50,167 nucleotides of DNA from Candidatus Omnitrophota bacterium (GTDB taxonomy: Bacteria; Omnitrophota; Gorgyraeia; 2-02-FULL-51-18). The notes under the pieces are model-generated. The model was not told the DNA's origin, made no database searches, and saw only the letters and a list, made by a program, of their open reading frames with translations. The stretch covers positions 1-50,167 of the forward strand of contig CAMDWQ010000003.1 in assembly GCA_945877765.1 (NCBI GenBank). The letters are read 5' to 3'. Positions 45,127-50,167 of this stretch are shown one piece after another; within the stretch, counting starts at the first letter, position 1; each line of letters begins with the position of its first letter. The position numbers and the translations under genes are program-made.

Positions 45127-48100
45127 TTAGGCGTTGGACTCGACCGTACGGGAGAGCAGGTAAAGCTGCATGGCTTTTTTGAAAGTGGCCCAAACCTTGG
45201 CGGGAAAAGCAAAGTTTGCAATAGCCTCCTTCTCGCCTTCTAGAAAATCTTTGAAGTCCTTCATTTCCATTGCCTTGCGCTTTTGGGTATCTATTCCGTA
45301 CTCAGGAGCTATGGAGAGAAAATAATCGAAAGCCTCCTTGAGCCGCCCATCCGCCAATAGTCTCATCATGTGACCCACCTCGCTAAATGCAAAAACTGGA
45401 GCCTGGCCACCCACTTGGCCTTGCAAAGTGACCCGAAGAAGATTGGAAGGCAGCTCAATATTTAGCTCAGGAAGTTTAGATTGGGCGTTAGTCAGGAGAA
45501 TATTGGAAACACCCTGACCTTTAAATGATTCCGGAAGATTTTGCAAGCTTACAAACTGGCCAGCTTGTTTAGACCGAATGGTTTCACCGAGAACACTCAG
45601 CGCCTTCTTCACCTGACCCTCATCACCCAACAATACTACCATCGAGGTAGGCGACAAACCTGATGCTTGATGGATAGCAAAATTTTGAAGTTCTTGGGTA
45701 GGCATATTGGACACATCCACAAAAAATACAGCGAGGTTGCTCAATACAGGAACTACCGCGTGGCCAGCTCGGTTGGCAGCAAGAACAATATTAAGTTTTT
45801 TGGTGAGTTCGTCGTTGCGCGTATTTTTCATGGTATTGCGATCTTCTTGCCGAGCCAGATTCACAGCGCCGTTTGAAGTATTCAGGATGTAGGAGGCGCC
45901 GCCAGTGACCACCAAAAGCTCGCCGTCTCGTCCCGTCAGTTCGTACACCTGCACTTCCCCGCTTTCATCGGCCAATGCAAGGCTTTCGGTAAATGTCCGG
46001 CTCAGAATCGGCACAAGATCTGTTAAAAAATACTGCACATTCCTAGCTAGACCGTCGGTCGGCGTGACTACAACCTCTGGCGAGGTTTCTGAAAAGTCTG
46101 CCCGCCAGACTCTGAGCTCGGGTGCTCTAACGCTTCTATTCAAAAGGTCAAAATCAGCTTGCGCCGATTCATCGGTGGACGCCAGCCGGGCGGCAATCGG
46201 AGTGAACTGACTAGCAATTTTTTTGGCCTGCTCGTCCTCAAATACAGCGGGCTCATCAGACTGCCTGAGATTTAAGTAACGTGCTTCGACAACATATGAA
46301 CTGCCTTCCCTAGACGCTCTGTTAAAAGAATGATCTGTGACTTTTATAACCGTTATGACTAAACGTAGGCCTGAACTGGAGTTAGCGAGATAACTATTTA
46401 TGCTTCTGGTCCATCCGCTTAGTGGGTACGATTGATCAAGTAGCACAGACGACCACGGTGTTTGTGTGGGAATTTCAATAATGCTTCTTTTTTTCTGAGC
46501 TGTTTTCAGGCTATCTATCACTTGCTTATCTGTAGGCAGACTTGGATCAGCATTAGACCGTAAACTATCTTGCAGGGTTCCCAGAGCAGAAAGCGTGATC
46601 AGTGTCCTTATGTCACCTTGTTTGCCCAGGCCCAAAAGAGCCACCTCTTGTGGTAACATCGCCGGTTTAATTTCACCCAGGTTTATAAGCTCGACCCGGC
46701 CGGCCGCATACCTATTGCCAGTACTGACCCTGGCAATAGAGTCTTTTAAGATGCTCGCCGTCACAATAAGATTAGCGGGAGTTGTGTTTTTCGGAGAGAT
46801 TGTCAATGAAGCAAAAACCAATTGACTTGCGCGGTCTTGGAATCTGACTTCAAATTCTACCTTACTCTCCACACCTGGAAACAAGCTCAGATCAATCGCA
46901 AAAACTGGGGGCGTTGTTTCCTCGGATACAACAGACGCGGCGGAAATGTCTAAGACCTCCCTACTGTTGAAGTGAATAGCTCCGTGAATAGTCATCGGTA
47001 TACCCTGGCTAAGTTCCAAATTATCCATCCCCTCACGAGTTCGGAGTTCATTGAAAAAACTAACCAACCCATTCGTAATAGCCTCAGCATCCACAGAAGA
47101 GAGGTTCAATTTCTTATTAACCCGGGGCCTTAACAGGGGGGGGTCAGGTAGATACGGCACGACCAAGCCTCTTCCGCTTTTATTATTACCCGCGCTATCT
47201 GGATGAGGCGGATGTGGATGACGTATTCTATTTGAACGATGGGAGGTCCTATTCTTGTTAGCAAGCCGGGCGGCGGATGGCGCCGCCAGAAGAACTTGGG
47301 GGATTGTGATATTTTCGTTTTCGACGTTTCCTTCGTTAATACCTTGTTTTACATGGAATTCTGTTATCTCACCACCCTCGCCGAAAAATCCTATTAAATC
47401 CTTGGCAGACACGGCAATCTCGATCATTTGCCCGTTGGACAATGAAGTTGCTTTCTCTCCCTGTGCCGCCCAATCATTATCAGTCTTTGAGAAGGTGGTA
47501 ATATAATTTGTTACTTCCCCTTTCCCATTTTTGCCTCGAATTTGAATGGTAAATTTCGTAAACGAAGCCACTTTTGGATTAAGCCTAAGAACAACGTAGC
47601 TGTCTTTCATTGCACTGAGTTTGGAGGGAAATCTTTCGAGTTCGGTAACTTTACGCATATAGGCGTAAAATTTTTCACTAGTTTTATGACCATACTTGCC
47701 GCTTAGAGGTTGCTCATTAACAATAACTCGCAGATTCGTGGGGTGTTTTGGTTGAGGGGTTTTACTTCTAACTCCGCCGGGGCCTTTCCCCTCCCACTCA
47801 GACGATATAAAAAGACCGGAATTTTCCACTGGGTCGCTCACTCCATAGCGTCCCTCGTGGGACTTGCCAGTTTCCTTCGCTTTCCAGGGGTTGTTGTTGA
47901 ATTGAAACCAAGTCACGCGAATGATGTTGGGCGTCCTTTCCACCACTTCGAATACTTTCTTCATAAATTCAAGTTGTCGGGCCGCTTGATCTTCACCAGC
48001 AGCGTTTTGATTAGGGAGACCGATTTCCTGGATGATCAGCGGTAGTCCGGCTAGCTCCGCCGATGCGGCAGCCCTTTCAATCAGCGAGACATCGCCATTC

Positions 48101-50167: not shown

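Follow-up and report, generated by a model that had tools for sequence, protein, structure and literature searches.

A peptide delimiter of giant modular proteins in an Omnitrophota family with silent sites that vary in concert within genes

Introduction

Giant open reading frames (ORFs) of Omnitrophota have previously been described as an N-terminal membrane or signal part followed by strings of poorly conserved domains, and post-translational cleavage of the products has been proposed (10.1101/2023.11.21.568195; PMC10066038; 10.64898/2026.06.07.730766). The main text of one of them, the 2023 preprint of West-Roberts et al., gives the cleavage points as unknown (10.1101/2023.11.21.568195). 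Here we describe a gene of the same kind from the same phylum, the 3' part of which lies at the end of a 50,167-nt stretch of a Candidatus Omnitrophota genome (GCA_945877765.1, contig CAMDWQ010000003.1, positions 1 to 50,167; hereafter the window). The window is C3:1-50167 of a 1.65-Mb assembly of 39 contigs, and the focal gene on its minus strand contains recurrent copies of the pentapeptide AARLA, which a first-pass annotation made from the sequence alone had interpreted as a possible cassette junction, loosely like a shufflon or an integron. We treat these copies as instances of a delimiter that separates the modules of giant proteins. These three main texts mention neither the delimiter nor its codon-level pattern or confinement to a family or order; the string "ARLA" does not occur in the main texts, supplements not covered, of 10.1101/2023.11.21.568195, PMC10066038 and 10.64898/2026.06.07.730766. 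A literature search for the whole words GARLA and AARLA returned, among the matches listed, only surnames and the like.

Several other systems combine larger units with short recurring sites. Integrons rely on an IntI integrase and on recombination of attI with attC, and the focal gene resembles them in having unrelated gene-sized units in a row, a short recurring site that bounds them, and units that vary between relatives. Here, however, the units lie in frame inside one ORF, the 15-nt site is read as peptide and has no imperfect palindrome, and the nearest recombinase fits XerC rather than the integron integrase model. In the shufflon, the Rci recombinase acts on segments of pilV that lie between inverted sfx repeats and inverts them. 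In the present case, C-terminal segments would likewise be altered by recombination inside a single gene, but all copies are direct and no Rci-like recombinase is found near the focal gene. Arrays of clustered regularly interspaced short palindromic repeats (CRISPR), in which the repeat is duplicated at each spacer insertion, offer an analogy only, in that each array has near-identical short repeats, most alike between neighbours, with unrelated inserts between them, and the repeat pattern belongs to the array and not to the insert. Here the inserts are coding modules of 0.4-3 kb, the repeat is translated, and the similarity is statistical (approximately 0.52 versus 0.46, as described below) and not near-perfect save in a few genes; no Cas1/Cas2-like machinery turned up, no search having been aimed at such machinery. 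Viral polyproteins combine several functional proteins in one ORF with recurrent protease sites, and are alike in that several proteins per ORF are split by a short conserved site, though in the giant proteins we infer the cutting. Finally, modular polyketide synthases and nonribosomal peptide synthetases (PKS/NRPS) exchange modules at conserved linkers, and their repeats are homogenised by recombination. They would share with the giant genes the exchange of modules at conserved sequence, but here just five codons are conserved and the modules are unrelated folds instead of paralogous modules.

Results and discussion

The AARLA sites of the focal gene are copies of a peptide delimiter

The focal gene (C3 45127-54159, minus strand) has 3010 codons from its ATG and extends beyond the end of the window. 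Its product consists of a signal/hydrolase-like head, modules split by AARLA and a conserved tail. The window contains the following parts:

45127..50167, minus strand: 3' part of the giant gene, 5,041 nt = 1679 codons plus stop
50008..50022, minus strand: AARLA delimiter, GCC GCC CGT TTG GCC, residues 1380-1384
49075..49089, minus strand: AARLA delimiter, GCC GCC CGT TTG GCG, residues 1691-1695
47260..47274, minus strand: AARLA delimiter, GCC GCC CGG CTT GCT, residues 2296-2300
46180..46194, minus strand: AARLA delimiter, GCC GCC CGG CTG GCG, residues 2656-2660

The pattern GCCGCCCGKYTKGC matches the window exactly four times, always on the minus strand (46181-46194, 47261-47274, 49076-49089 and 50009-50022), and all four sites are in frame within one open frame that runs off the window. 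The expectation for GCCGCCCGKYTKGC is 0.02 from 100 dinucleotide-preserving shuffles, none of which contained four or more matches. The four AARLA sites reported by the first-pass annotation agree with ours in coordinates and strand, and its observation that the leading Ala codons are GCC and the Arg codon CGK extends to the whole gene, in which all six AARLA copies read GCC GCC CG[G/T] and a degenerate copy, AARLG, also reads GCC GCC CGG TTG, for a direct-repeat family of seven. The contrast with the flanking modules that it described is equally real, with GCC representing 29.5% of 241 Ala codons, and AGA plus AGG 50% of 157 Arg codons, outside the motif in the focal gene. Given this codon usage, four GCC GCC CGK copies have a probability of about 2e-7. 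The genome has 66 other AAR[L/M]A copies, of which 8 are GCCGCCCGK, and drawing from these 66 gives P = 2e-4 for four of four and 3e-6 for six of six. The shared GCC GCC CGK codons of the focal gene are not due to chance or codon bias.

These sites are copies of a [G/A]-A-R-[L/M]-A delimiter of giant modular proteins in an Omnitrophota family. A crude gene set of the genome (1229 ORFs, 506,106 aa) includes 75 GARLA, 69 AARLA, 8 GARMA and 3 AARMA, or 155 copies in total, compared to an expectation of approximately 1.6 for AARLA. Nearly all of them (145/155) fall in ORFs that reach 1200 aa or more, a class that accounts for 92,171 of the 506,106 aa; stop-to-stop frames with 1200 codons or more number 36 in the genome. 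On the sense strand, the degenerate DNA pattern is found 156 times in frame 0 and a single time in each of frames +1 and +2, with 14 further matches antisense. The delimiter is therefore under selection as a peptide, read in one frame and from one strand. The DNA-level conservation claimed by the first-pass annotation is present within the focal gene but does not amount to a fixed consensus, as every synonymous codon is found among the 155 copies of the genome.

Beyond this genome, the delimiter was identified in giant ORFs from 10 members of the same family and from one genome of a sister family within the same order. None of 30 head-bearing giant ORFs from other families or classes of the phylum (approximately 140,000 aa; L042-L071) carries [GA]AR[LM]A, and the delimiter seems confined to one family or order. 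An alternative delimiter was considered for these other families, and no recurrent 4- or 5-mer beyond the head motifs was found in the same 30 ORFs.

Silent sites vary in concert within genes and between neighbouring copies

The main new result is that delimiter copies of the same gene, and neighbouring copies in particular, are alike at their silent sites. Same-gene copies agree at silent positions at a level of 0.505, versus 0.445 for copies of different genes (permutation p = 2e-4), and this holds when conditioned on the G/A variant and when the focal gene is removed. Codon usage at the level of the gene, which the first-pass annotation had kept as an alternative, fails to explain the sameness both in this genome and in its relatives: within-gene similarity is 0.521 here versus 0.462 ± 0.017 in simulations from each gene's own codon usage (3 of 1000 reach it), and 0.490 versus 0.446 ± 0.017 in 13 giant ORFs of 11 relatives (8 of 1000 reach it). 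Moreover, after 9 of 266 copies with flanks resembling another copy were left out, neighbouring copies were more alike than order-shuffled ones in this genome (0.538 vs 0.496, p = 0.003) as well as in the relatives (0.554 vs 0.492, p = 7e-4).

Two giant ORFs of relatives illustrate the pattern most clearly. In a gene of 6904 aa (genome G014), the first twelve copies have GCC for the second Ala in ten cases and CTN for Leu in all (CTG in nine), while a single 12-mer is common, without any difference, to the last six consecutive copies. Between these last copies lie modules that have no mutual similarity, and the flanks of the copies differ; codon usage was considered as a possible local cause and is equal in the two parts of the gene. 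Similarly, in an ORF of 4912 aa that is ended by the contig end (genome G095), 8 of 12 copies have the same 14-mer and the modules are without similarity. The silent-site pattern belongs to the host gene or block and not to the module, as predicted by copying of the delimiter and not by peptide constraint alone.

Delimiters at module borders and at the joins of duplications

The modules of the focal gene within the window, each set off by one or two delimiters, are:

49090..50007, minus strand: module between two delimiters, without function assignment
47275..49074, minus strand: glycosyl-hydrolase-like module with a delimiter at each side, weak Glyco_hydro_cc match
46195..47259, minus strand: module between two delimiters, without function assignment
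45130..46179, minus strand: C-terminal tail module, common to giant proteins of other genera

We compared delimiter positions with BLASTP homology blocks among 45 giant proteins (36 from this genome and 9 from relatives), counting a delimiter when it lay at least 25 aa inside a block. Only 34 delimiters were inside homology blocks, versus 432 ± 76 expected under random placement, and 1 was inside a non-head block, versus 28 ± 9 expected. By this measure, the delimiter marks the borders of independently assorted modules. Three parts of the focal protein (head, hydrolase-like module and tail) are each found again in other giant ORFs, beside different neighbours. The head (residues 8-670) matches the heads of at least 20 giant ORFs of this and related genomes at 21-48% identity and was matched in 110 of 151 sampled Omnitrophota genomes, and the tail has 22-42% identity to the C-termini of giant ORFs in G014, G024, G009, G018 and G003, where the homology starts 29-196 aa past the last delimiter. 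The hydrolase-like module, for which the Glyco_hydro_cc match is under the cut-off (E 0.005), has homologues in other giant ORFs, and the 46195..47259 module has no family match and no homologue among the relatives searched.

The whole focal gene was found in none of 40 relatives, five of them of the same genus, which have only single modules in common with it, and the same is true of two other giant genes of this genome when compared to same-genus genomes. A search of 5.8 billion proteins returned P0004 (3559 aa) as the closest protein, the only other match being a fragment of the focal gene itself. P0004 has 42% identity to the focal protein in the head and 50% over 650 aa in the hydrolase-like module, the alignment of which starts and ends at the delimiter in both proteins; this module directly follows the head in P0004, whereas approximately 1020 residues of other modules intervene in the focal protein. 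Together, the sharing of single modules and the arrangement of P0004 show that module order is not fixed and that the borders of insertions and deletions lie at delimiters, as the module comparison suggested in the first-pass annotation would have it. Scans of metagenome contigs with the window protein and of genome contigs with P0004 recovered no close orthologue of the focal gene, and a search for the hydrolase-like module in 31 other genomes of the family gave no match at E up to 1e-60.

At nucleotide resolution, we identified 12 dispersed intragenic duplicates (at least 75% identity over at least 150 nt), of which 9 belong to one internal repeat array unrelated to the delimiter and 3 are module duplications. 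Among the 33 unique block ends, seven are no more than 9 nt from a delimiter, versus 0.78 ± 0.89 expected (p = 2e-4), and all seven come from the 12 ends of the three module duplications. In the G014 duplication, a 499-nt copy with 88% identity starts at the last base of the resident delimiter and ends 2 nt past a delimiter in both copies, so that three of four ends are within 2 nt of the 3' edge of a delimiter. The two delimiters on either side of the inserted copy are identical at 14 of 15 nt, and each is less similar to the delimiter of the source copy. In addition, three paralogous heads of this genome have 91-92% DNA identity that stops 2 nt past a GARMA.

Two observations on repeated DNA in this genome belong beside these. 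The head ends at C13:1-631, C27:1-631 and C14:426-937 are 89-92% identical in DNA through the GARMA delimiter, beyond which they diverge as a mosaic, C13 first resembling C27 and C14 then resembling C27, which suggests recombination among paralogues. A giant ORF of 3443 aa at C1 47063-57391 (minus strand) contains an internal array of approximately 75%-identical DNA repeats (gene nt 2300-4500) that is unrelated to the delimiter.

Export signals directly behind delimiters

Signals of the kind expected at N-termini are found immediately behind delimiters, including one in the window:

48994..49074, minus strand: twin-arginine (Tat)-like export signal, TRLN-RRAFLE followed by a hydrophobic stretch and ASA, directly behind the 49075-49089 delimiter

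The twin arginines of this signal start four residues past the delimiter. Defining a Tat-like site as a twin-arginine consensus with a following hydrophobic stretch, we identified 25 sites in 50 giant proteins, 10 of which begin 1-5 residues past a delimiter, compared to 1.05 expected. In P0004, a GARLA at residues 1958-1962 is followed from residue 1963 by MSRRDVLK..., a signal that passes the Pfam TAT_signal model (30.1 bits, cut-off 22.7). P0004 in fact has two such junctions, at residues 540-547 and 1958-1981, each with a delimiter followed at the next residue by MSRRD(L/V)LK..., a complete Tat signal including its own Met, and it looks as if whole genes had been fused behind the delimiter exactly at the start codon. 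A general internal start behind the delimiter was considered and rejected, with Met at +1 in 7 of 272 copies versus 4.8 expected.

N-terminal-type signals directly behind the delimiter argue for a cut at or just after it, and the delimiter is probably a site of proteolytic cutting. The cut would fall at or directly after the last Ala and would free the modules, some of which would then bear an N-terminal Tat export signal.

The delimiter as a proposed record of module gain and duplication

We consider it on balance probable, though by no means secure, that the delimiter, besides its role as a peptide, preserves at the DNA level the traces of modules that were gained or duplicated with their joins at this site. 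The copies of one gene would be related to one another by copying. Modules would have been gained, duplicated or lost over evolutionary time, with the joins of these rearrangements falling on the delimiter either through motif-to-motif (micro)homology or through insertion that duplicates the central 9-12 nt, and new copies would inherit the silent-site pattern of the resident one. Such a history would require no dedicated recombinase, and none is evident; the delimiter would be a historical junction and not a switch.

Several observations weigh against this reading. The evidence from joins comes from three recent events, the other 21 ends belonging to one internal repeat array, and between-gene DNA block ends in this genome are at the delimiter in 5 of 186 cases versus 3.4 ± 1.9 expected (p = 0.25), most of these ends being fade-outs within heads. 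Outside a few striking genes the concerted effect is modest (approximately 0.52 vs 0.46), and the third base of the last Ala has no concerted signal at all (0.297 vs 0.303). In the G014 gene, position 1 varies (GGC/GCC/GGT) while the next 12 nt are identical, which simple duplication does not predict and which could point to selection on silent sites; the recurrence of a bias towards G-ending codons across genera likewise suggests selection, which could yield some similarity without copying. A length of 11-15 bases is short for RecA-type recombination. As for cutting, cleavage at the delimiter is something that we infer from sequence, and the Tat-like signal of the focal gene has just the RRxFL consensus and a hydrophobic stretch, with no match to TAT_signal (PF10518 or TIGR01409; E up to 0.1 for Pfam and up to 1 for NCBIfam).

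A bolder version, which we regard as possible but doubtful, gives the delimiter a dual role, as a protease site in the protein and, in the DNA, as the place where an in-frame cassette system joins its units. Whole genes, some with their own signal peptide and start Met (as at GARLA|MSRRD... in P0004), would be captured behind an existing delimiter, and the central 9-12 nt would be duplicated or recombined in the process. If this were true, a giant gene would grow like an array with a shared silent-site pattern, a "protein-level operon" built by motif-guided insertion.

Silent-site bias and possible selection on codons

The silent sites of the delimiter are biased as well as shared. The GC content of third codon positions (GC3) is 0.76, 0.77, 0.77, 0.73 and 0.68 across the five motif codons, 0.61 in the codon preceding the motif and approximately 0.45 from the codon after the motif on. 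Arg is encoded by NGG in 104 of 155 copies versus 95 of 250 non-motif A-R-L contexts (Fisher 1.5e-8), Leu by TTG in 69/144 versus 73/271 in the background (3e-5), and the second Ala by GCS in 119/155 versus 235/403 (5e-5). Codon choices at the first three motif positions are linked, with GCG-AGG accounting for 23 of 32 motif AGG cases versus 45 of 238 background Ala-Arg pairs, and GCC-AGG for none of the 32 versus 80 of the 238. All 13 giant ORFs from the 11 relatives have a motif GC3 above background (9/9, then 4/4 more), and CGG is found in 35 of 75 and 23 of 46 of the copies in relatives versus a background of 13-19%; an exception is a same-genus gene (G003) with no NGG in its six copies. 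No DNA conservation beyond the five codons was found in the flanks of the copies.

We considered four general causes of the bias. The context of neighbouring codons accounts for part of the high GC3 and not for the bias in Arg and Leu codons. Nor does the motif simply prefer optimal codons, as CGG and AGG are avoided in ribosomal-protein genes and form 16% of Arg codons in a set of 16 ribosomal-protein and neighbouring genes. A regional GC effect is ruled out by flanks that are at background from the codon after the motif on, and general codon-pair bias by the GCG-AGG association, which is opposite to the background. By aragorn, the genome has only 41 tRNA genes, and those for Arg have the anticodons CCG, CCT and TCT, without a detected ACG. 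There is a dedicated tRNA for each of the two Arg codons that the delimiter favours, CGG and AGG.

The properties of the bias would fit a silent-site pattern that is selected at the level of RNA or translation (e.g. slow G-ending Arg and Leu codons that pause the ribosome at module borders), with sameness between copies arising by convergence. The bias is sharp, spans exactly the motif and the preceding codon, recurs in the giant ORFs of relatives, favours Arg codons that ribosomal-protein genes avoid and couples GCG to AGG, and the 12-mer of the G014 gene is invariant while the preceding G/A residue changes. Selection of this type, however, predicts one optimum per genome, whereas the patterns differ between genes and even between parts of one gene, and it does not predict the greater likeness of neighbours than of other same-gene copies. 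Furthermore, neither complementary RNA nor free DNA copies were found: outside the motif, the 11-nt core pattern occurs just 9 times in the genome, in no case in a recognisable RNA gene, and there was no match to an Rfam family. As a full account of the data we find selection on silent sites unlikely; for part of the signal it is a serious rival.

The search for an active recombination system

It is quite improbable that the GC-rich core is a site of active, enzyme-driven, site-specific recombination that shuffles modules in the living population in the manner of a shufflon or integron. The copies are direct, in frame and alike, so that the frame would survive excision or insertion between them, and the concerted silent sites, the three duplications with motif-level ends and the variation of giant-gene content even within the genus would all fit such activity. 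The linked recombinase that it calls for was not found, however. No recombinase adjoins the focal gene, whose neighbours are LPS (lipopolysaccharide)/Kdo (3-deoxy-D-manno-octulosonic acid) biosynthesis genes, a DUF3108 protein and a PIN protein, and the nearest tyrosine recombinase, 11.4 kb upstream in a dprA-topA-xerC cluster, is a housekeeping XerC that scores 349.7 bits with the XerC model (cut-off 335, NCBIfam) and 138.5 with the integron integrase model (cut-off 265). Recombinase matches in the whole genome amount to three of the tyrosine and two of the serine type, for 36 ORFs of at least 1200 aa.

Nor does the locus have the signatures of the known systems. All seven copies in the focal gene are direct and none is inverted, unlike the repeats of a shufflon; no inverted repeat or attC-like palindrome was identified at the focal delimiter sites, and no linked IntI-type integrase at the focal locus, either of which an integron would be expected to have. 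The reverse transcriptase family PF00078, looked for as the mark of a diversity-generating retroelement, has no match in the genome (97.9% complete). Moreover, conservation ends at five codons, and the pattern is nearly confined to one reading frame, as a peptide would be. The cassette junction of the first-pass annotation is therefore retained as evolutionary history, in view of the module borders, the concerted silent sites and the duplication ends, and set aside as an active shufflon- or integron-like system, the copies being direct, in one frame and without inverted counterparts or a linked recombinase.

That nothing special is at work, and that the pattern arose by chance, through codon bias at the level of the gene or through recent duplication of entire units of module and motif, is the least credible explanation of all: the focal gene does have just six or seven copies, the peptide fixes 11 of 15 bases and a few copies elsewhere are evident recent duplicates with similar flanks (the 9 of 266 that were dropped), but the focal gene gives P values of 2e-4 to 3e-6 with codon usage that is not GCC- or CGN-rich, simulations with gene-specific usage do not reproduce the effect, which survives removal of the focal gene and of flank-similar copies, and the flanks and modules of the copies are unrelated.

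Other features of the locus

A second repeat adjoins one of the delimiters and is separate from it:

50025..50061, minus strand: dispersed repeat copy of approximately 35 nt, peptide PPSSILQPPSVL, adjoining the delimiter at 50008-50022

This GGA/TCC-rich repeat is 25-37 nt long and is read in the focal frame as PPSSIL(H/Q)PPSVL. Several copies in both orientations, with hairpin-like inverted repeats, lie in the head of the focal gene (C3 52535-52659, outside the window), and near-identical copies are found in or near many other giant genes, often by contig ends. A PIN-domain ORF of 131 aa (PF13470, E 6e-14) lies at 44080-44475 on the plus strand, just past the 3' end of the giant gene and opposite to it in orientation. 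Outside the window, a single ORF at C3 66541-68751 (minus strand) matches both ThiS (residues 3-66) and bacterial topoisomerase I (residues 73-676). The sequence is present, among DNA sequencing runs kept as contigs, in 9 from lakes or freshwater, and no RNA run was among those found to hold it.

Conclusions

The delimiter bears both on how bacterial giant genes are constructed and on whether their products are cut. For the protein, it supplies concrete candidate cut sites, and the export signals directly behind some of them make cutting testable. For the gene, the silent-site pattern would serve as a DNA-level record of module assembly that is beyond the reach of peptide analysis. Delimiter copies bear gene- and block-specific "haplotypes" that follow the host gene and not the module, and these may be used to trace the shared history of the parts of giant genes and to test in-frame gene fusion guided by a five-codon motif in bacteria.

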